64,000 nucleotides of DNA, taken from Candidatus Fimenecus excrementavium. GTDB lineage: Bacteria > Bacillota > Clostridia > Oscillospirales > Acutalibacteraceae. A program made the translations under genes and the position numbers. Positions within the stretch are counted from its first letter, which is position 1, and every line of letters starts with the position of its first letter. The notes beneath the pieces are model-generated. The model did not search any database. It saw only the letters and a list, made by a program, of their open reading frames with translations, and was not told the DNA's origin. Positions 3,211 to 56,886 of the stretch are shown in pieces. The stretch is taken from positions 51,725 to 115,724 of the forward strand of contig DVGI01000020.1 of assembly GCA_018712805.1 (NCBI GenBank), given 5' to 3'.

Positions 3211-3470
3211 TGCTCAAGGCCGTTTCCGGGTTGACAAAGAAAAAGATTGATGTCACTGACTGCTCGAATTCGGTGTGTCCGGCGACAGTACCCGCAAAAA
3301 TATTCGTGCAGCTGCTTCCGGGTCAAGGAAGTAAAAGATTGATTTCACTAACTGCTCGAATTCGGCGTGTCCGGCGACAGTACCCGCAAAAATATTCGTG
3401 CAGCTGCTTCCGGGTCAAGAAAGCAAAAGATTGATTTCACTAACTGCTCGAATTCGGTGTGTCCGGCGAC
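3211..3470. repeat. Tandem direct repeat, 92-bp unit, about 2.5 copies plus a degenerate partial copy
   Basis: Units start at 3241, 3333 and 3425 (AAAAGATTGAT[G/T]TCACT...). Copies 1 and 2 differ at about 5 positions by hand alignment. Copy 3 is truncated near 3470 and supplies the last codons and stop of the kinase gene. 3211-3240 resembles a unit end. Confidence 0.85.
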
Positions 3471-5881
3471 ACCGGCGACACGGATTCGGCGATGTCGCCG
3501 TCGTAAGCCAACGGGAGTTTCACCGTCGCTTTGAACAGGTCGCCGTCAATTTGCAGTTCCAGCGCGCCGCCTTGCAGTGTGCAAAGGTCTTTTGCAATCG
3601 AAAGCCCGAGCCCGCTCCCCTCTTTAGTTCGCGACTGGTCCCCGCGCACAAAACGCTGGGTCAGTTCTTCGGGCGGAATGTTCAGCGCCTCGGCGGACAC
3701 GTTTTTCACCGAGAAAATGCCCTCGCCGTTTTCTTCGCGCACGTCCACGTAAACGCGCGTGCCCTCCAGCGAATATTTGCGGGCATTGTTTAACAGATTG
3801 TCAAAGATGCGCCACGTTTTTTGGCTGTCGGCAAAAATCACCGGCGGCGTTTCAGGCGTATTTAACACGATTTCGAGTCGGCGTTCAGCAAAACTGTCTT
3901 CCATTTCGCCGACGGCCTGCGTCGCAAGCTCGCAAAGGTTAACGCGGATTTTGTTAAGCGTAACCGCGCCGGAGGAAACCTTGGAGGCTTCGACTAAATC
4001 TTCAATCAGACGTTTGAGCCGGCCGGATTTCTCGTCGAGCACGCGGATATATTTCTGGGCGGTCTCGTCTTGGATGTCGCATTTTTCGAGCAAATCCACA
4101 TAGGAAATAATCGAAGTCAGCGGCGTTTTCAAATCGTGCGAGACGTTGGTAATCAGCTCGGTTTTCATACGCTCGCCTTTGAGCGCCTCTTCAATCGCCG
4201 CGGCTTTGGACTCCTGCGCGGCAGTGAAATTCTCGGCAAGCGAGCGCAGGGGCTGCGGCATGCTTTGCGTATCCAAAATCTGTGCGGGTTCACCATCATG
4301 CGCTTTTTGGGCGGCGGTTATGATTTTGTCGAGCGAAACGACGTAACGCCAAACCAAAATCAGGCTGATGACATTAAACAAAATCAATAAGAACAGCGCA
4401 ACGCCGATGCGTTCAAACGTAAACAGCGCAAGCACCGCGTTCACGGCAAGATAGAAGAGCGTAAACCAACGTACTTTTTTGGAAAGGGAGGTCAGCTTTG
4501 CAAGGTAGATGCGGCGAAGCGCGCCGAAAAACTTTTTGTTGCCCTTGTGCCACGCGATAAACAGTTTTGCGAGCAGGGTGGAGCGGAAATACGGCCGCCC
4601 CGCCTTATAGCCTTTTGCGACGGAGTTTATCCACTCCATGGCGATTGCATAAACCACAGCCGAAAGCAGAGCGCCGAGCGCGGGGAAGAAAAATTCATCA
4701 GTATAAGAAGAAATCTGATCCGCGCAGGCAACGACCGCCCCCGTGCCGGCAGCGATACCGAGGCCCCAGCTTAACACGAAGTGCAAATCGTTCGGCATTT
4801 TGTCGCCGGGCGCAAGGCAAATGCCCTCCCGTCCGCGCACATGGCCGGTCACAAGCACCAAATACAGCGAAATTACCGCGGCGGCAATCAGCAAGACGAC
4901 CGTTGCAAGACAGCGCGTGCGAATTTGCGACGCGCCGGTCAGGAATTCCTCCTGCGCATCGGCAAAGCTGTCACCGCGTTCGAGCGGCATGGGAATGTCG
5001 AAATAAACATCGTAACCTTTGTCGCTGAAGCGGCTGTTCAACAAATCAGCAAAGGGAATCGCGTAGTTTCCTTGATAAAATGTGTCAATGTTCAGCGAGT
5101 CGGAGTAAAGCGTCAAGCCTTTGTCACAGGTGTAGCCGAAATACCAGTCGGGGCTGTTTAAATATTCTCTAAAGTTTTCTGCCGTGACTTCTGCCGGCAT
5201 ATTGGTAATGACTTCGCCGGTGTCTGTATTATGCAAATAATATTGCACATTTTTCAGTTTGCTGAGCGCCTGCTGCGCCTGCAACACCGAGGACTCAAAC
5301 TCGCGGCGATAATTGGCAAGCGTGCCGGTATAGATTTCTTCGACCGCCTGCCGCGCGTGACTTTCCGAATCTTCGGAATACAGCGTAACTTCCGCCGTTG
5401 GCAGGCTGTTCAGCGGGATTGTCACGATAAATCCGCTGGGGGTCTCGTCTGCTGCATTTGCGCCGTTCAGGGCGTAAGCCGCCGTGGTTTCCTGTGCGTC
5501 GCCGTTACCATCTTCCACGGCTTCTGCGTTGTCGGCGTATTGCTGCCGAATGTCCGCTTTAAACCTTTCAAACTGTTCGACCACATAATCCTGCTCCTCT
5601 TCCAGCGTGTCATAAGCCGGCAGGGCGTCCCGCTCCCAGTTGTTGTCAATATAGGCTTTGCTCAAATCACTCAGGGTAGAGGCAACCTGCTGCTCAAACA
5701 TGGTTGAATCTGTAAAAGATAAATTGTCTCCACTGACGCCCTGCTGCCAGCCGTAGCTGTCGAGGGTCTGCACGACCAGCTGGGTATACCATGCCGCGGA
5801 AAAGACGCAGGCAAGCGCCACCAGGAATGCGACGGTTTTTAAGCCGTAGCTGTATTTAATACTTTTCAATTTTGTATCCAA
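3440..5881 (-). CDS. Sensor histidine kinase with a large N-terminal extracytoplasmic region
   Basis: 813 aa. HisKA H-box ELITNVSHDLKTPLTSIISY; HATPase NLLNNARKYS...GSGLGLSIAKDL; TM segments near residues 17-37 and about 330-530. TTG start overlaps the regulator gene 3' end. Confidence 0.9.
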   Translation of the reverse strand: MDTKLKSIKYSYGLKTVAFLVALACVFSAAWYTQLVVQTLDSYGWQQGVSGDNLSFTDSTMFEQQVASTLSDLSKAYIDNNWERDALPAYDTLEEEQDYVVEQFERFKADIRQQYADNAEAVEDGNGDAQETTAAYALNGANAADETPSGFIVTIPLNSLPTAEVTLYSEDSESHARQAVEEIYTGTLANYRREFESSVLQAQQALSKLKNVQYYLHNTDTGEVITNMPAEVTAENFREYLNSPDWYFGYTCDKGLTLYSDSLNIDTFYQGNYAIPFADLLNSRFSDKGYDVYFDIPMPLERGDSFADAQEEFLTGASQIRTRCLATVVLLIAAAVISLYLVLVTGHVRGREGICLAPGDKMPNDLHFVLSWGLGIAAGTGAVVACADQISSYTDEFFFPALGALLSAVVYAIAMEWINSVAKGYKAGRPYFRSTLLAKLFIAWHKGNKKFFGALRRIYLAKLTSLSKKVRWFTLFYLAVNAVLALFTFERIGVALFLLILFNVISLILVWRYVVSLDKIITAAQKAHDGEPAQILDTQSMPQPLRSLAENFTAAQESKAAAIEEALKGERMKTELITNVSHDLKTPLTSIISYVDLLEKCDIQDETAQKYIRVLDEKSGRLKRLIEDLVEASKVSSGAVTLNKIRVNLCELATQAVGEMEDSFAERRLEIVLNTPETPPVIFADSQKTWRIFDNLLNNARKYSLEGTRVYVDVREENGEGIFSVKNVSAEALNIPPEELTQRFVRGDQSRTKEGSGLGLSIAKDLCTLQGGALELQIDGDLFKATVKLPLAYDGDIAESVSPVSPDTPNSSS

Positions 5882-6545
5882 TGCCCCACACCACTTTCAA
5901 ATACTTCGGTTCTTTCGGGTTGATTTCGATTTTCTCACGGATACGGCGGATATGCACCGTCACGGTTTTTTCGGTGGAAAAAGCGGGCTCGTTCCACACG
6001 GCTTCATAAATTTGGTTGGTGGAAAGGACGCGGCCCATGTTGCGCATGAGCAATTCCAAAATGCCGTATTCCGTTGCAGTCAGGCGAACCGGCTCGCCGT
6101 CAAGGGTGACTTCTTTCGAATCGGGGTCAAGTGTCAGCCCGCCGGTGGTCAGGACGTTTTCGCGGACCTCCATGCTCCCGAGCGAAACATAGCGGCGAAT
6201 TTGCGATTTGACGCGCGCCATAAGCTCCAACGGATTAAACGGTTTGGTGACGTAATCGTCCGCGCCGAACGAAAGGCCGGTGATTTTGTCGGTATCTTCA
6301 CTTTTTGCGGAAAGCAAAATAATCGGGATATTTTTGGTTTCACGCAATTTGAGCGTTGCGTTCAGGCCGTCAAGGCCGGGCATCATGATATCTAATATAA
6401 TGCAATGGATTTCGTTTTCCTGGGCGGCTTTGAGGGCTTCTTCGCCGTTTTCGGCTTTGATGACCTCGTAACCCTCCAAGTGGAGATAAATCTCCAAAGA
6501 ATCCAAAATTGCTTTGTCGTCGTCACAAATTAAAACGGTATACAT
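5856..6545 (-). CDS. OmpR/PhoB-family response regulator
   Basis: 229 aa from MYTVLICDDDKAILDSLEIYL... (receiver), with a winged-helix C-terminus ...TVHIRRIREKIE...YLKVVWGIGYKIE. GAGGGG SD precedes ATG 6545. The upstream 48 codons of the track ORF are rejected. Confidence 0.92.
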   Translation of the reverse strand: MYTVLICDDDKAILDSLEIYLHLEGYEVIKAENGEEALKAAQENEIHCIILDIMMPGLDGLNATLKLRETKNIPIILLSAKSEDTDKITGLSFGADDYVTKPFNPLELMARVKSQIRRYVSLGSMEVRENVLTTGGLTLDPDSKEVTLDGEPVRLTATEYGILELLMRNMGRVLSTNQIYEAVWNEPAFSTEKTVTVHIRRIREKIEINPKEPKYLKVVWGIGYKIEKY

Positions 6546-6715
6546 AACTACCCCTCTTTTATCGGAATAATCGGTTTTCTTTATCATAACAGATTTTTGG
6601 GAAAACGAAAACCTTTTCTTTGGATTTCTTAAAACCCACATTTCTCCTGTATATACTTTATAACAGGAATTTCTAACAAAACAAGCCACAAAAAAGTTAC
6701 AATTCTCTTAAGTGC

Positions 6716-6971: not shown

Positions 6972-7006
6972 AAAAAAACAAGGCAGAGTTTTTACACTCT
7001 GCCTTG
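6972..7006 (-). terminator. Rho-independent terminator closing the surface-protein/micro-ORF operon
   Basis: 11-bp perfect stem (CAAGGCAGAGT/ACTCTGCCTTG) with a 6-nt loop, followed on the minus strand by T7. Confidence 0.85.
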
Positions 7007-7061
7007 CTTGTGTTTTGTTAATAAACCCGGTGTGTTTGCACCGATGTCAAAATATCACAGG

Positions 7062-7184
7062 TTAGATTTCCACCCAACCGTCGTCGCCGCCTTCAACAGG
7101 ACCGGTGCCGACAGAGATTGTGATAATATCTTCAACATCATAGAGTGAAACATCGAAATCGGGCGTTGTGTACACTTGTTTCAT
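7062..7184 (-). CDS. Unannotated acidic micro-protein, 40 aa (paralog of 7225-7359)
   Basis: MKQVYTTPDFDVSLYDVEDIITISVGTGPVEGGDDGWVEI. Strong AAGGAGAA SD about 9 nt upstream of the ATG. Below the ORF-track size cutoff. Shares a motif with the neighbouring micro-ORF despite synonymous nucleotide differences. The terminator follows 55 nt downstream. Confidence 0.6.
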   Translation of the reverse strand: MKQVYTTPDFDVSLYDVEDIITISVGTGPVEGGDDGWVEI

Positions 7185-7224
7185 CTGAAGTGTTCTCCTT
7201 TCTTAATTTACCAATTATTTTAAA

Positions 7225-7359
7225 TTACCAAATAATGACTGCATCGCCGCTTCCGTCGTCCGGCAATGACGGTACAACGGAAATATCAGCAATTTTCTCG
7301 TCTTGTTCAAAACGTATAAATTCAAGGTCCGGCGGTGCATATTGCATTTTTGGCTGCAT
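7225..7359 (-). CDS. Unannotated acidic micro-protein, 44 aa (or 40 aa from the ATG at 7347)
   Basis: MQPKMQYAPPDLEFIRFEQDEKIADISVVPSLPDDGSGDAVIIW. Starts 23 nt after the stop of gene 7383-8570; SD is weak (AGGTAG). Shares Y-x-x-P-D-[LF]...[FY]-[ED]...I-S-V...D-D-G with the 40-aa paralog. Confidence 0.5.
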   Translation of the reverse strand: MQPKMQYAPPDLEFIRFEQDEKIADISVVPSLPDDGSGDAVIIW

Positions 7360-7382
7360 TGTCACTACCTACTTACTTTCAA

Positions 7383-8570
7383 TTATCCAGCAAAGGGATA
7401 TGCAGCAAGGTAAGAATCAACAATAGTCTGATAATTGGTATCCAGGAGAGCGGTCTGCGCTGCATCATAGAATGCATACTGCGTAGCACCTTCAGCATCT
7501 GTATACTCAACATATGCAATGTAAGTTGCATCCGAACGGGTTTCAGCGCTTGTAATCTGGATGATTGCGCCGAAGTAAGCATCGGAAGAATCGTCAGCTT
7601 TCTGGACATAAGTGGTGGTCGCTACATCGTAGCCGGCAGCCGAGCCACCCTTAGCAACGGACTTTGCAGTTTCAAGGTCGAAACCGGCGGTGCCTTTGTA
7701 AGCAACGAAGCCGAGCTTAGTGAGCGCGTTGTTGCCGCCAGCAGCGGTGTTCGCGAAGTAGGTATCCCAGTCAGCGTCGGTAATCACAGAGGTTACACGG
7801 AACTGGAATGCATCTTCAACGGTGGTCGGGCTGTTCGGAGTCATCTTGACTTCAGCCTTGGACTTCGCAACGACAGGGCCTGCGGGCTCGTCAGAAACTA
7901 CAGTAACCTTAGCCATAGACTGCGTCAGGTCGTATGCAGTATTTTGATAGCGTGTGCCACCTGCAGGGGACATATAAGAAACATTTTTCAAATAGGTTGC
8001 TTCATGGTTACCAACCCAGATTTCTTCACCGGGCTGAACATCGTCGGAAACAACCATTTTGAATGTGCACATGGGGGTGTTTTCATCTTCAGGAGTCCAG
8101 CCCTGACCAGGTTTATTGATAACACCTAAACCAGTGTCCACAACACCATTCATCAAAATAGCGCTTGTGTAATATGCCTGCTCTTCTTCAGTAAGGTTCG
8201 CTGCCAACTGTGCAATAGGATAAGCAAAGTTAACAGTCGAAGTCTGTTTCATGAAGTTTGCGCAACCATTAACATATTCTCTAAATTCTGTGTTCGTTGT
8301 GGAAACAGGATTCACTTGCTTGTTGTTGTACACGAGGGTCGTCATCCAAGGGCCAAAATCCCCTGTGTAGCTACCACCCGTTTTAACATAAATAGAATAA
8401 GTGATCGTGTCTCCCGCTTTTACTTCTGTTTTATCAGCTTTAACAATGATACCCAAATCACCTGAGTTCAAGGAAGGGGTATAAGTAAGAGCTTGGGCTG
8501 GTAAAACAAATAATGAACACAGCATTACAAGTGCTATAACTAATGATAGTACTTTTTTTGCTTTTTTCAT
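7383..8570 (-). CDS. Secreted protein with an N-terminal cohesin-like beta domain, function unknown
   Basis: 395 aa. Signal peptide MKKAKKVLSLVIALVMLCSLFVLPAQA; IIVKADKTEVKAGDTITYSIYVKT... resembles a cohesin-type sandwich. GGAGG SD. No dockerin, LPXTG or SLH motif seen. Confidence 0.75.
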   Translation of the reverse strand: MKKAKKVLSLVIALVMLCSLFVLPAQALTYTPSLNSGDLGIIVKADKTEVKAGDTITYSIYVKTGGSYTGDFGPWMTTLVYNNKQVNPVSTTNTEFREYVNGCANFMKQTSTVNFAYPIAQLAANLTEEEQAYYTSAILMNGVVDTGLGVINKPGQGWTPEDENTPMCTFKMVVSDDVQPGEEIWVGNHEATYLKNVSYMSPAGGTRYQNTAYDLTQSMAKVTVVSDEPAGPVVAKSKAEVKMTPNSPTTVEDAFQFRVTSVITDADWDTYFANTAAGGNNALTKLGFVAYKGTAGFDLETAKSVAKGGSAAGYDVATTTYVQKADDSSDAYFGAIIQITSAETRSDATYIAYVEYTDAEGATQYAFYDAAQTALLDTNYQTIVDSYLAAYPFAG

Positions 8571-52769: not shown

Positions 52770-53249
52770 ATGAAGCAAATTGACTGCGAACAACTGGTGC
52801 AGGACAACCGGCAAATCTGTCTTCGTATGGAGCGGCTGGCAAACCGCTTTATGGAGACCGAGGGCCTGACCGCCGTGCAGGGGCACTTGCTGTTGTATAT
52901 CCTGTCAAAAGGCGACAGCGGCACTTCGCTGACGGCGATTCACCGCGAGTTCGGCTATTCCAAGGCGACGCTTTCAAACATGCTCAAGCGTCTTCGGGAA
53001 AAAGGCTATGTGCGTGTGGCGAGCTGCGCGGGCGACGACCGCTTGAAGCTTTTGTTTGCCACCGAAAAAGGCGAACAGGTGCGCGCGTTTTTAGAAACAG
53101 CTATCCGCGATGTGCAGCAGCAGGTTTACGGCTGTTTTTCCGAACAGGAGCTGCGCACGCTTAACCGTCTGCAAAAGAAACTGCTTCAAAATCTCTGCGT
53201 CAGCGCAGAAAAAAATATCCGGAATCAAAAGGAGGAATCCGATTTATGA
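52770..53249 (+). CDS. MarR-family transcriptional regulator
   Basis: 159 aa; LTAVQGHLLLYILSKGDSGTSLTAIHREFGYSKATLSNMLKRLREKGYV. Confidence 0.9.
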   Translation: MKQIDCEQLVQDNRQICLRMERLANRFMETEGLTAVQGHLLLYILSKGDSGTSLTAIHREFGYSKATLSNMLKRLREKGYVRVASCAGDDRLKLLFATEKGEQVRAFLETAIRDVQQQVYGCFSEQELRTLNRLQKKLLQNLCVSAEKNIRNQKEESDL

Positions 53250-54985
53250 GAACTGTATTGCATCAGCTTGGCCGGTATAAAAAAGACACGGTCATCTGTG
53301 TTCTCATGACGACGCTGGAAGTCGTAATGGACATTTTGCTGCCGTTTATCACCGCGATTATCATTGACCGGGGTTTGAGCGCAGCGAATATGTCGGTCGT
53401 TTGGCGTTACGGCATTATTATGGTCGTCATGGCGTTTTTAGGTCTTGTGTTCGGCGCGGGCGCCGGTAAATATGCCGCGAGCGCTTCGTCGGGCTTTGCC
53501 GCGAATTTGCGCGAAGCCATTTACAGCAACATTCAAACCTTTTCTTTTTCCAACATAGACAAATTCAGCGTTCCGGGTCTTGTCACCCGAATGACCACCG
53601 ACGTCACCAACGTGCAGAACGCATTTATGATGCTGATCCGCATGGCCGTTCGTGCGCCGCTTACGCTCGTGTTCAGCTACATTATGTGCTTAATCATCAG
53701 CCCGCGCATGAGCCTGATGTTCTTAATCGCACTGGTTTTCCTGGTTGTGGTGCTCGGCGTGATTATGATTACCGCCATGAAAATCTTTAATGACGTTTTC
53801 CACAGATACGACGACTTGAACGCGAGTGTGCAGGAAAATGTTTCCGCAATTCGCGTGGTGAAGGCGTTTGTGCGTGAGGACTTTGAAGAGCAGAAATTTT
53901 CCAAGGCTTCCAAAACGCTTTACAAGCTGTTTGTGAAGGCGGAAAGCCTGCTTGCAATTAACAACCCCGCGATGATGCTCGCGATTTATTTCTGCATCAT
54001 GCTCGTTTCGTGGCTCGGCGCGCATTACATTGTCGCAGGCTCCATGACCACCGGCGAGCTGACCAGTTTGTTCAGCTATGTGCTCTCTTTGATGATGAGC
54101 TTAATGATGCTTTCCATGATTGTGGTTATGATCAGCATTTCCCTGGCGAGCATCCGCCGTATTGCCGAAGTGCTCCGCGAAACGCCGGACCTTGCCGACC
54201 CCGAAAATCCGGTGATGGAAGTCAAAGACGGCAGCATCGATTTTGACCACGTGCAGTTCGCCTATAAACACGGCAGCGGCAAAAACACGCTTTCCGACAT
54301 TGATTTGCACATTCATTCCGGCGAGACCATCGGCGTCATCGGCGGCACGGGCAGCGGCAAGAGCAGCCTTGTCAACCTGATTTGCCGGCTTTACGACGTG
54401 GACGAAGGCGCGGTGCGCGTCGGCGGCGTGGACGTTCGTAAATATGATATGGAAGTCTTACGTAACCAGGTTTCGGTGGTGCTTCAGAAAAACACCTTGT
54501 TCTCCGGCTCGATTTTAGACAACCTGCGTTGGGGCAACCCGCAGGCGACCGAAGAAGAATGTATGGAAGCTTGCAAATCGGCGTGTGCCGACGAGTTTAT
54601 CGACCGCATGCCGGACGGCTACCACACCCACATTGAACGCGGCGGCGCGAATGTTTCGGGCGGTCAGAAACAACGTCTTTGCATTGCGCGCGCGCTTTTG
54701 AAAAAACCGAAAGTTTTGATTTTGGACGACTCGACGAGCGCCGTGGACACCGCAACCGATGCGAAAATCCGCGAAGCGTTCCAAAAGAAGATTCCCGGCA
54801 CCACCAAGATTATCATTGCACAGCGTGTTTCGAGCGTGGAAAACGCCGACCGCATTTTGGTCTTGGACAACGGCCGGATTAACGGCTTTGACACCCACGA
54901 AAACCTGTTGAAGACCAACGCCATTTACAGCGAGATTTATGAATCGCAGGTCCAGGGCGGCGGCGACTTCGACCAGCCCGCGTAA
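53246..54985 (+). CDS. ABC exporter, fused permease/ATPase (heterodimer subunit A)
   Basis: 579 aa; Walker A GGTGSGKSS, signature VSGGQKQRLCIARAL, Walker B VLILDDSTSAVD. Its start overlaps the marR stop. Confidence 0.9.
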   Translation: MRTVLHQLGRYKKDTVICVLMTTLEVVMDILLPFITAIIIDRGLSAANMSVVWRYGIIMVVMAFLGLVFGAGAGKYAASASSGFAANLREAIYSNIQTFSFSNIDKFSVPGLVTRMTTDVTNVQNAFMMLIRMAVRAPLTLVFSYIMCLIISPRMSLMFLIALVFLVVVLGVIMITAMKIFNDVFHRYDDLNASVQENVSAIRVVKAFVREDFEEQKFSKASKTLYKLFVKAESLLAINNPAMMLAIYFCIMLVSWLGAHYIVAGSMTTGELTSLFSYVLSLMMSLMMLSMIVVMISISLASIRRIAEVLRETPDLADPENPVMEVKDGSIDFDHVQFAYKHGSGKNTLSDIDLHIHSGETIGVIGGTGSGKSSLVNLICRLYDVDEGAVRVGGVDVRKYDMEVLRNQVSVVLQKNTLFSGSILDNLRWGNPQATEEECMEACKSACADEFIDRMPDGYHTHIERGGANVSGGQKQRLCIARALLKKPKVLILDDSTSAVDTATDAKIREAFQKKIPGTTKIIIAQRVSSVENADRILVLDNGRINGFDTHENLLKTNAIYSEIYESQVQGGGDFDQPA

Positions 54986-54999
54986 AGGAGGTATTTGTT

Positions 55000-56886
55000 A
55001 TGCAAGAAAGACCGAGCAAAAAGAATTCTCTTGCGGTTTTAAAACGCGTTTTCCGCTATATGATGCATTACTACAAACTGCCTTTTACGATGGTGGTTTT
55101 GTGCATTTTGATTTCCGCGATTGCAAGCGTTATCGGCGCAACGTTCCCCCAGACGCTGGTCGATGATTACATTGTGCCGATGCTGCAAACCGGGTCCACG
55201 GATTTCAGCGGTCTCGGGCACGCAATGATTCGCTTAATTTGCATTTTGGCGGTCGGCGTTTTGGCGGCTTACGGCTACAACCGCATTATGGCGAACGTCA
55301 CCCAGGGCACCATGCATCACCTGCGCAATGACTTGTTCGGCAAAATGGAAAAGCTGCCGATTAAATATTTCGACACCCACGCGCACGGCGACATTATGTC
55401 GGTTTACACCAACGATATTGATACCCTGCGCCAGTTAATCAGCCAAAGCATTCCCCAGATTATCAACTCTACGATTTCGATGACCGCGACATTTATCACA
55501 ATGGTGATTTTGAACCCCGCGCTCACCATCATTTCGATTTTGACCGCGATTGTGATGCTGCTCGTCACGTCCGGCTTCTCGCGGCTTTCCGGAAAATATT
55601 ACGTCCGTCAGCAGCGCGACCTCGGCGCCGTGGACGGCTTCATTGAAGAAATGCTCGATGGGCAGAAGGTCGTCAAAGTGTTCTGCCACGAAGAAGCAGC
55701 AAAAGAAGATTTCCAAAAGGTCAACGACCGTCTGCGCGACAGCGCGAACAAGGCGAACCGTTACGCAAACCTGTTAATGCCGGTCAACGCGAACATCGGC
55801 TGGGTCAGCTACGCGGTGGTCACGATTGTCGGCGCGATTCTCGGCATCAACAACCTGGCGGGCGTTACGCTCGGCACGGTTATTACCTTTGTCGGTCTGA
55901 ACAAAAGCTTCACGCAGCCGATTACCCAGGTCAGCATGCAGATTAACTTCGTTGTTACGGCGGCGGCCGGCGCACAGCGTGTGTTCGATTTGATGGACCA
56001 GCAGCCCGAACAGGACCAGGGTTATGTCGAACTTGTCAACGCGAAGAAAGACGAAAACGGCAATTTGGTGGAAGTGCCCCAGCGCACAAATCTTTGGGCG
56101 TGGAAACACCCGCACCAGGCGGACGGCACTGTTACCTACACCCAAATGGAAGGCGGCGTGGTCTTTGACGACGTGGACTTCGGCTATGATGAAAACAAGC
56201 TGGTTCTCCACAACATCAGCCTTTGGGCAAAGCCGGGTCAGAAAATCGCATTTGTCGGCGCAACCGGCGCGGGCAAAACCACGATTACAAACCTGATTAA
56301 CCGCTTTTACGACATTGCGGACGGTAAAATCCGCTATGACGGGATTAACATCAATAAAATTAAAAAAGCCGATTTGCGCCACTCGTTAGGCATGGTGCTC
56401 CAGGAAACCCACCTGTTCACCGGCACGGTAATGGACAATATCCGTTACGGCAAGCTGGACGCAACCGACGAAGAATGCATCGCGGCGGCGAAACTCGCCA
56501 ACGCCGACAGCTTTATCCGCCGGCTACCCGACGGCTACAACACAATGCTCGGCGGCGACGGCGGGAACCTTTCTCAAGGTCAGCGCCAGCTTTTGGCGAT
56601 TGCCCGCGCGGCGGTTGCCGACCCGCCCGTATTGATTTTGGATGAAGCAACGTCTTCGATTGATACGCGTACGGAAAAACTCGTACAGGACGGCATGGAC
56701 GCGCTGATGAAAGGCCGCACGACATTTGTCATTGCGCACAGACTTTCGACCGTTCGCAACGCCGACTGCATTATGGTTCTTGAGCAGGGCCGCATCATTG
56801 AGCGCGGCACACACGACGAACTGATTGAAAAGAAAGGCAAATATTATCAGCTGTATACCGGCAATTTTGCCGACGCAACGGCGTAA
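55000..56886 (+). CDS. ABC exporter, fused permease/ATPase (heterodimer subunit B)
   Basis: 628 aa; Walker A GATGAGKTT, signature LSQGQRQLLAIARA, Walker B VLILDEATSSID. Confidence 0.9.
   Translation: MQERPSKKNSLAVLKRVFRYMMHYYKLPFTMVVLCILISAIASVIGATFPQTLVDDYIVPMLQTGSTDFSGLGHAMIRLICILAVGVLAAYGYNRIMANVTQGTMHHLRNDLFGKMEKLPIKYFDTHAHGDIMSVYTNDIDTLRQLISQSIPQIINSTISMTATFITMVILNPALTIISILTAIVMLLVTSGFSRLSGKYYVRQQRDLGAVDGFIEEMLDGQKVVKVFCHEEAAKEDFQKVNDRLRDSANKANRYANLLMPVNANIGWVSYAVVTIVGAILGINNLAGVTLGTVITFVGLNKSFTQPITQVSMQINFVVTAAAGAQRVFDLMDQQPEQDQGYVELVNAKKDENGNLVEVPQRTNLWAWKHPHQADGTVTYTQMEGGVVFDDVDFGYDENKLVLHNISLWAKPGQKIAFVGATGAGKTTITNLINRFYDIADGKIRYDGININKIKKADLRHSLGMVLQETHLFTGTVMDNIRYGKLDATDEECIAAAKLANADSFIRRLPDGYNTMLGGDGGNLSQGQRQLLAIARAAVADPPVLILDEATSSIDTRTEKLVQDGMDALMKGRTTFVIAHRLSTVRNADCIMVLEQGRIIERGTHDELIEKKGKYYQLYTGNFADATA

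Follow-up and report, generated by a model that had tools for sequence, protein, structure and literature searches.

Two small open reading frames behind a cohesin/dockerin gene set of Candidatus Fimenecus excrementavium are probably precursors of clostridial LPP-like peptides

The DNA analysed here (the window) is a stretch of 64,000 nucleotides from Candidatus Fimenecus excrementavium (contig DVGI01000020.1, positions 51,725 to 115,724), and its minus strand carries two small open reading frames (ORFs), A and B, at the end of a set of cohesin/dockerin genes. A and B are probably precursors of peptides that are made on ribosomes and modified after translation (RiPPs) and that depend on a RiPP recognition element (RRE), and they would form a branch in Clostridia that is sister to the linear polyphosphorylated peptides (LPPs). 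An earlier note made from the sequence alone had found the two ORFs and had not recognised their family. In keeping with this, neither A nor B matched any Pfam or NCBIfam model at E <= 10; what the note had missed was the leader motif of RRE-dependent RiPPs, YxxPx[LF]. New in our analysis are the identity of this precursor family and its systematic placement after genes for surface proteins.

A profile built from A and B was run against 1.84 billion representative proteins (clusters at 50% identity, E <= 1e-3). The superfamily recovered comprised at least 162 clusters, almost all of 33-65 aa, with the consensus head MKxxYxxPE[LMF][ED][VI]xxF[ED]xED[VI]IT[TL]S and hypervariable, acidic, Gly/Pro-rich tails that often ended in Trp. 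Conservation across the superfamily was confined to about 24 N-terminal residues, and Y5, P8, D19, T22 and S24 (B numbering) were each conserved in at least 90% of an alignment of 147 sequences. The superfamily is unmodelled in Pfam and NCBIfam; ten of its members gave only sub-threshold matches to lasso or thiopeptide leader models (NCBIfam lasso_cyano, E 0.01-0.1). When ORF B was modelled with AlphaFold2 from the same 147-sequence alignment, no secondary structure at all was predicted and confidence was highest in the first 20 residues, that is, in the putative leader. The model argues against a globular mini-protein and fits a peptide whose folding requires a partner.

The RREs of lasso-type and LPP systems bind the motif [Y/W]xxPx[L/V/I/F/A] (PMC13381572). 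Both ORFs carry it, B as Y5-T-T-P8-D-F10 and A as Y7-A-P-P10-D-L12, and within the A family its Tyr, its Pro and its aliphatic or aromatic residue were invariant. The combination of a conserved N-terminus with a highly variable C-terminus, which characterises LPP precursors, was also found in the family.

The genes beside other family members point in the same direction. Loci are designated here by L and a number. Six loci of the Candidatus Fimenecus group (L015, L018, L019, L021, L022 and L028) have, directly after B, genes for a kinase (an HprK-like P-loop protein), an RRE (an 88-aa PqqD protein; PF05402, E 1.8e-16), a signal peptidase I (SpI)-like peptidase (148 aa, with a match to the archaeal signal peptidase I model TIGR02228, E 9e-6) and an MsbA-like ABC exporter. 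A metagenome scan added 79 loci, mainly from one human-gut clade. At the ends of the gut-clade arrays we found genes for a P-loop protein weakly similar to HprK-like/ScmC proteins, a PqqD protein of 86-97 aa (PF05402, E ~1e-15), a protein of 144 aa that matched signal peptidase I of the archaeal type and an ABC exporter without a C39 domain, together with an NTP_transf_5 (PF14907) protein. Two very distant branches of the peptides therefore share the accessory set: of five co-localised LPP genes the six loci of the Candidatus Fimenecus group had 4 and the gut clade had 5, but the set was absent from the window and from the 7-10 kb around loci with both A and B. Since orthologues of B and distant family members alike adjoin the kinase, RRE, peptidase and exporter genes, A and B are most likely RRE-recognised precursors of an LPP-like system of Clostridia.

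LPPs were described in Bacilli by Popov et al. (Nat Commun 2026; PMC13381572). Their gene set, lppA-K-B-S-D-N, includes an HprK-like kinase (LppK), a discrete RRE (LppB) and an NTP transferase (LppN), and their precursors of 35-200 aa begin with a conserved part, YxxPxVLxHQxIxFETxxS, and vary towards the C-terminus. Cleavage of the leader takes place after T-1 and requires the RRE, and S3 gains several phosphates; the clusters often lie in capsule loci (PMC13381572). The A/B family resembles them in its short precursors with a conserved YxxP N-terminus and a hypervariable C-terminus, in having, at the loci with enzyme genes, an HprK-like kinase, a discrete PqqD-type RRE, an archaeal-type SpI-like leader peptidase and an MsbA-like exporter in the same order, and in the absence of a lasso cyclase. 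In one clade of the superfamily an NTP transferase is shared too. Furthermore, a capsule-type Wzz/tyrosine-kinase gene follows the cluster of L022. The two families differ in their hosts (Bacilli versus Clostridia), in the length of the tails, which are much shorter in the A/B family (about 10-25 aa), and in gene placement, since A/B-type genes come right after surface-protein genes, often in arrays, and in the window lie apart from the enzyme genes.

The enzymes of the A/B family were also compared with the similarity network of that study, whose clusters 4 and 9 contain clostridial SpI homologues classed as 'RRE others' with precursors given as 'ND' (Supplementary Data 1, PMC13381572). The L022 peptidase (L022 9084-9530) was 43% identical to SCH01704.1 (E 7e-36) and only 29% identical to a cluster-1 peptidase, and the L022 RRE (L022 8815-9081) was 40% identical to SCH01659.1 (E 2e-25), the partner of SCH01704.1. 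As both SCH01704.1 and SCH01659.1 belong to cluster 9, the peptidase and RRE of the A/B family fall with enzymes to which no precursor had been assigned. The L022 RRE matched in addition the solved RREs TbiB1 (1.5e-7) and LppB (9x8z_B, 1.3e-4).

From these likenesses a maturation pathway can be proposed. The N-terminal half (Y-x-x-P-x-F/L ... E-D-I-I-T-x-S) would serve as the leader and would lie as an extended strand on a small PqqD-type RRE, and the EDIIT.S block would be the site of cleavage and modification. By analogy with F-3/E-2/T-1 and S3 of LppA, the DIITIS block of B is a candidate for both the cleavage site and the phospho-acceptor Ser. The boundary between leader and core may lie after T22, if this residue corresponds to T-1, or after residue 17, if the FET of LppA is aligned instead; the near-invariance of T22 and S24 is consistent with a Ser close to the cleavage site as in LPPs. 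The HprK-like kinase would phosphorylate the nearly invariant Ser by the cleavage region, and the MsbA-like ABC exporter would secrete the acidic tail. In B this tail would comprise about 16-23 residues ending in DDGWVEI (a candidate tail is ISVGTGPVEGGDDGWVEI); that of A is unlike it, ending in ...GDAVIIW directly before the stop codon. We infer that A and B are modified, cleaved and exported by enzymes encoded in this genome outside the window. The exported peptide might act together with the surface protein encoded upstream.

Several observations weigh against this assignment. Genes for the kinase, the RRE and the peptidase were absent from the 64-kb window, where the only similar genes were those of generic ABC exporters (E 1e-45 to 1e-49, compared with ~1e-280 for true orthologues). 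This exporter gene pair lies 46 kb from A and B, and no kinase, RRE or peptidase gene stands alongside it. The enzyme genes were likewise absent within 7-10 kb of every locus carrying both A and B; the enzymes would need to work in trans, encoded in another part of the genome. No NTP transferase gene was seen beside the clusters of the Candidatus Fimenecus group. The N-terminal consensus of the A/B family, YxxPE.E..FE.EDVIT.S, departs from YxxPxVLxHQxIxFETxxS of the LPPs and its spacing is unlike, so that the full LPP consensus was not found. Sequence homology to LppA-type precursors was likewise not established, the match being weak: hhalign of the superfamily against nine LPP precursors from Bacilli gave a probability of 8.6% (P 0.004), with only KKxYxxP and FE aligned. 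Moreover, the A allele of the window reads Ala-Asp ahead of the conserved Ser, in place of the Thr found in most family members. Two alleles of A occur within this one species (L115-L122), ...EKIAD[IV]SVV..., which is that of the window, and ...D[DE][EK]ITISVV..., so that the ITIS form is present in other strains. Finally, modification, cleavage and export in the clostridial family are predicted from genes and sequences.

The prochlorosins are a known case in which dispersed precursor genes depend on a single set of enzymes. The A/B family shares with them the many precursor genes per genome, the near-identical leaders, the hypervariable cores and the location of some precursor genes far from the enzymes. 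It differs from them in chemistry and leader, and in that each precursor gene of the A/B family is tied to a surface-protein gene.

The enzyme clusters themselves showed some variation. In L022 (7200-7800) and L019 (7150-7700), a spacer of 0.5-0.9 kb between B and the kinase-like gene contained repeated units translating as ...GGETPPLRV...; no gene is apparent in this spacer, part of which is masked as a run of N in L019. In the gut clade, an AAA_14/DUF4143 ATPase gene lay between the kinase-like and RRE genes of L039 (8065-9384) and also of L043, L062, L080 and L088. The kinase-like gene appeared truncated in L066 (9141-9721) and L068 (9172-9754), and in both loci the RRE, peptidase and exporter genes were missing between it and the NTP-transferase gene, which suggests that the processing cluster is decaying in some strains.

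A and B are almost certainly functional coding genes. A collection of 5.8 billion proteins contained 47 homologue clusters at 90% identity for B and 4 for A, and the pair, or B alone, was found at 26 loci from GTDB species-representative genomes of Candidatus Fimenecus, Eubacterium sp. CAG:180 and unnamed Ruminococcaceae/Oscillospiraceae. About half of the related loci also have A, which there invariably lies between B and the gene with the conserved C-terminal domain (see below); OZ007023.1 is among the sequences that carry both A and B. In all eight conspecific strains with identical B, ORF A was intact and so was B, and both reading frames were unbroken in every strain and species examined; the conservation in related loci on which the earlier note had made its case depend was therefore found. 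Differences among B sequences amounted to 0.50 at codon position 3 versus 0.13-0.20 elsewhere (pN/pS 0.30), and those among A sequences to 0.43 versus 0.19-0.21. To judge from these patterns, A and B are under purifying selection, in agreement with the note, which had argued for selection on the peptides from synonymous codon differences between the two ORFs (CCG/CCC, GAC/GAT and TCC GTT/TCT GTC, all present in the sequence). Its description of the ORFs as unannotated holds in that the names given in public data are uninformative; the exact sequences have nevertheless already been called as genes, B on 494 contigs, one of them of 2.1 Mb, and A on 403.

The paralogy of A and B, also proposed by the note, emerged only at the level of families. 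Pairwise BLASTP of A against B gave no match and a shuffle test of the pair only p = 0.03, whereas profile-profile comparison of the two families by hhalign gave a probability of 86% (E 4.6e-6) over 27 N-terminal columns and the joint alignment was collinear over the full length. These results support paralogy of A and B with homologous N-terminal halves. In L001, L002, L004, L016 and L031, the whole cassette (cohesin/dockerin protein, cohesin protein with the C-terminal domain, A and B) was tandemly duplicated in near-identical copies. An ORF of the B type in L035 (7001-7123) carried an A-like tail (...SEDNTNHDAIIDLT) and may be a recombinant of the two paralogues; the gene with the conserved C-terminal domain was not detected upstream of it in this locus.

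The features of the window, together with the stalk proteins discussed further below, are listed in Table 1. Both ORFs lie in the orientation of the cohesin/dockerin genes, and the run ends at a strong terminator, as had been described. A begins about 20 nt 3' of the last secreted-protein gene, 40 nt separate A from B, and the Shine-Dalgarno sequence attributed to B was confirmed. The counts given for composition were also right (nine D/E in each peptide, with three K/R in A and one in B), and neither sequence contains Cys or a signal-peptide-like N-terminus. Alternative start codons of A are GTG at 7365 and ATG at 7347. Because strain L117 has ACG in place of the first ATG, the true start may be the internal Met at window position 7347 (MQYAPP).

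Table 1. Positions of ORFs A and B, their sequence elements and associated genes (window coordinates, except for the stalk proteins, which are given by locus)
Feature	Position	Strand	Remarks
ORF A	7225-7359	-	44 aa, ATG at 7359; MQPKMQYAPPDLEFIRFEQDEKIADISVVPSLPDDGSGDAVIIW
ORF B	7062-7184	-	40 aa; MKQVYTTPDFDVSLYDVEDIITISVGTGPVEGGDDGWVEI
Putative precursor encoded by ORF B			leader MKQVYTTPDFDVSLYDVEDIIT, then conserved Ser and acidic tail ...GGDDGWVEI
Motif of A, Y7-L12	7324-7341	-	YAPPDL, fits [Y/W]xxPx[L/V/I/F/A]; read from sequence
Motif of B, Y5-F10	7155-7172	-	YTTPDF, fits [Y/W]xxPx[L/V/I/F/A]; read from sequence
Block of B, D19-S24	7113-7130	-	DIITIS, most conserved block of the superfamily
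Shine-Dalgarno sequence of B	7195-7199	-	AGGAG, 10 nt 5' of the B ATG; read from sequence
Intrinsic terminator closing the operon 3' of B	6976-7009	-	14-bp stem with 6 G-C pairs, T tract
Secreted protein, 395 aa	7383-8570	-	signal peptide, cohesin-like domain, conserved C-terminal domain
Conserved C-terminal domain	7386-7889	-	about 165 aa, residues 228-395 of the 395-aa protein
Secreted cohesin-like and dockerin protein, 365 aa	8589-9686	-	two DVNGD.F.DGIDVS repeats
Dockerin-bearing protein, 1665 aa	9970-14967	-	first gene of the set; Dockerin_1, E 2.5e-7
OmpR-type response regulator and 813-aa histidine kinase	3440-6689	-	directly past the terminator; S10 ribosomal-protein operon next
ABC exporter gene pair	53246-56886	+	ABC_membrane and ABC_tran; 46 kb from A/B
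Stalk protein, L048	8305-8910		
Stalk protein, L036	8200-8628		
Stalk protein, L094	10968-11618		

In the loci carrying B, the constant upstream neighbour was neither a cohesin nor a dockerin but the conserved C-terminal domain that ends the 395-aa protein. The same domain ends varied cohesin proteins, a 773-aa LRR_5 protein and proteins of 937-960 aa, each followed by B. Across loci, B was 70-100% identical whereas this domain was 40-83% identical, which suggests that something besides the domain constrains part of B. In strains with identical B (L115-L122), the cohesin-bearing proteins ranged from 385 to 441 aa and differed in their N-terminal cohesin parts, and the neighbouring cohesin/dockerin protein varied from 339 to 381 aa, while the C-terminal domain, A and B were constant; the pattern resembles an exchange of modules in front of a 3' end that stays fixed.

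Models and searches of the upstream proteins gave the following picture. AlphaFold2 modelled the 395-aa protein from a nine-sequence alignment with a mean pLDDT of 60, the C-terminal part being better. The N-terminal part of the model was closest in Foldseek to the ScaC cohesin of R. flavefaciens (5lxv, E 4e-6), a match that is indicative at most because the model is mediocre and its N-terminal confidence low. The conserved C-terminal domain was modelled as a separate beta-sandwich with helices (pLDDT 75-85). It had no sequence match in Pfam or the PDB, and a search for its homologues returned only eight fragments. Sequence searches of the PDB with the 395-aa and 365-aa proteins, the profile of the C-terminal domain and the peptide profile yielded nothing informative, and orthologues of the 365-aa protein matched Pfam Cohesin (weakly) and Dockerin_1. 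Derivation of A and B from the upstream C-terminal domain was considered and rejected (hhalign probability 0.5%).

Placement after genes for large secreted surface proteins is characteristic of these precursor genes, as the metagenome scan also showed. A same-strand ORF of at least 100 aa ended within 400 nt upstream in 88 of 96 cases, the other eight having insufficient upstream sequence. Most of the upstream ORFs that were complete encoded roughly 1,000 aa or more and had N-termini resembling signal peptides, along with GLUG or LRR_5 domains. Arrays in which large and small genes alternate (large, small, large, small) were frequent in the gut clade. The peptides of this clade all begin with the head MKERYETPEMEIVEFETEDIITTSG but have different tails; 36 distinct peptides of one gut clade had near-identical first 24 residues and differing tails. 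The type of tail in the gut clade matched the type of upstream C-terminal domain in 22 of 22 cases for one type and in 24 of 26 for the other, a co-variation that is not strong evidence because it represents only two to four independent gene pairs.

Some surface proteins even contain the tails. Stalk proteins that are membrane-anchored or lipoproteins and have long linkers of low complexity, found in L048, L036 and L094, end in the tail motif of the next small ORF (...IELPFVPAE versus ...INLPFVPVGK; ...MPDDGLNWSPLVPVN versus ...MPDDGLEWSPLIPVN). The stalk protein and small ORF of L036 share 17 codons, and most of the differences between these fall at third positions, a sign of selection on the peptide. 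That stalk proteins share the tails of the peptides points to an extracellular site of action. Larger proteins with tails like those of B or A were not found in the window or in the loci of the Candidatus Fimenecus group.

The fact that B always follows one C-terminal domain, with the genes at the 3' ends of operons, suggests, speculatively, that the peptide acts with the surface protein. Together with the matching of tail types and the tails of the stalk proteins, this leads to the hypothesis that the tails act extracellularly in concert with surface proteins. A dedicated partnership outside the cell of the exported and probably phosphorylated A and B tails with the upstream surface proteins, in the case of B with the conserved C-terminal domain, is a tentative proposal that we consider rather improbable as it stands. 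One could speculate further that each surface-protein gene has its own small modified-peptide ligand that tethers, releases or regulates the protein.

The earlier note had suggested other roles, among them ligands of the cohesin-like or dockerin modules. As stated, this is unsupported, the conserved neighbour being a separate C-terminal beta-sandwich domain and not a cohesin or a dockerin. With cohesin-dockerin pairs A and B share the genomic setting and possibly protein-peptide recognition at the cell surface, but they differ from dockerins in having no Ca-binding loops and no Pfam match: the two ~22-residue Ca-binding repeats of Dockerin_1 are absent from A and B, and no repeat is visible in their sequences. 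Unmodified cytoplasmic acidic partners acting as export chaperones or assembly factors of the cohesin/dockerin proteins, a role close to the one that the note had named first, would explain the strict synteny with the conserved C-terminal-domain gene, the close spacing to the upstream gene, the acidic composition without a signal peptide and the lack of processing genes near A+B loci. Such a role is nevertheless unlikely. No fold was predicted for B; only the N-terminal half (about 24 residues) is conserved in the superfamily and the tails are hypervariable, although the upstream proteins are mutually unrelated; the conserved half contains the RRE-binding motif, and family members adjoin RRE, peptidase and exporter genes; and extracellular stalk proteins end in the tails of neighbouring family members. 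A further possibility is that A and B are functionless relics left after the processing genes were lost or moved, which would account for the absence of these genes from the window and from the surroundings of all A+B loci. Purifying selection in exactly these lineages, the frames intact in every strain and species, the identical B on 494 contigs and the tandem duplication of the cassette with both peptides make this very improbable.

Precursors of other peptide classes were weighed as well. Lasso peptides would use the YxxP leader on a B1-type RRE, with the core of B starting at Ser24, a Ser1-Glu8 macrolactam and the Trp of the tail as plug. The leader motif is shared with lasso peptides, the superfamily shows the sub-threshold matches to the lasso_cyano leader model mentioned above, the associated RRE scores highest with lasso-type PqqD chaperones, and in B a Thr stands at -2 to Ser24 and a Glu at core position 8. 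Paeninodin-type phosphorylated lasso peptides are among the closest known systems, sharing RRE recognition of the leader through [Y/W]xxP as well as an accessory HprK-like kinase, an NTP transferase and an ABC exporter (PMC13381572). However, macrolactam synthetase and B2 cysteine protease genes were not seen in any of the loci with kinase, RRE, peptidase and exporter genes, and no asparagine-synthetase-like or transglutaminase-like protein occurred in the fetched, partly annotated flanks of the enzyme set. The A/B family also has Tyr, not Trp, in the motif, and its protease, like that of the linear LPPs (PMC13381572), is a signal-peptidase-I-type serine protease and not a cysteine protease; many tails of the superfamily lack an acidic residue at core positions 7-9. 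We therefore give lasso precursors very little chance. Just as little speaks for pheromone precursors sensed by the OmpR-type regulator and histidine kinase downstream. Trp-containing C-terminal tails recall signals of the ComX and XIP types, and in this species and its close relatives the genes of the two-component system come after B. A strong terminator stands between B and the regulator gene, though, and the arrangement of regulator, kinase and S10 operon is kept within the species but not in other species with A and B: in L001 that position is taken by membrane proteins and a deacetylase, and in L015-L028 by the kinase, RRE, peptidase and exporter genes. Across this set of loci it is the upstream surface-protein gene that stays next to B throughout. 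Of the exported signalling peptides proposed in the earlier note, export thus remains the best-fitting role, given that orthologues of B lie 5' of a kinase/RRE/leader-peptidase/exporter cluster, while signalling finds little favour. A double-glycine leader was dropped: the exporters of the family contain only ABC_membrane and ABC_tran, and the leader does not fit LSxxELxxIxGG. For a ComX-like prenylated pheromone, a streptide-like Lys-Trp crosslink, a type VII secretion YxxxD signal and a toxin-immunity pair, no supporting gene or motif was found, and they were dropped as well.

If A and B are LPP-like precursors, as we consider probable, peptides of their type are widespread in gut Clostridia, and their superfamily of at least 162 clusters is a candidate precursor family for the clostridial peptidase/RRE clusters that lack one. 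It also means that ORFs of fewer than 50 aa at the ends of operons can be scattered RiPP precursors, which are missed by cluster-based genome mining. The systematic attachment of the precursor genes to large surface-protein genes, cohesin/dockerin scaffolds included, gives a testable lead to function. Should the tails prove to be partners of these surface proteins, they would be a peptide-based analogue of the pairing of cohesins with dockerins and would give LPP-like peptides their first biological role.

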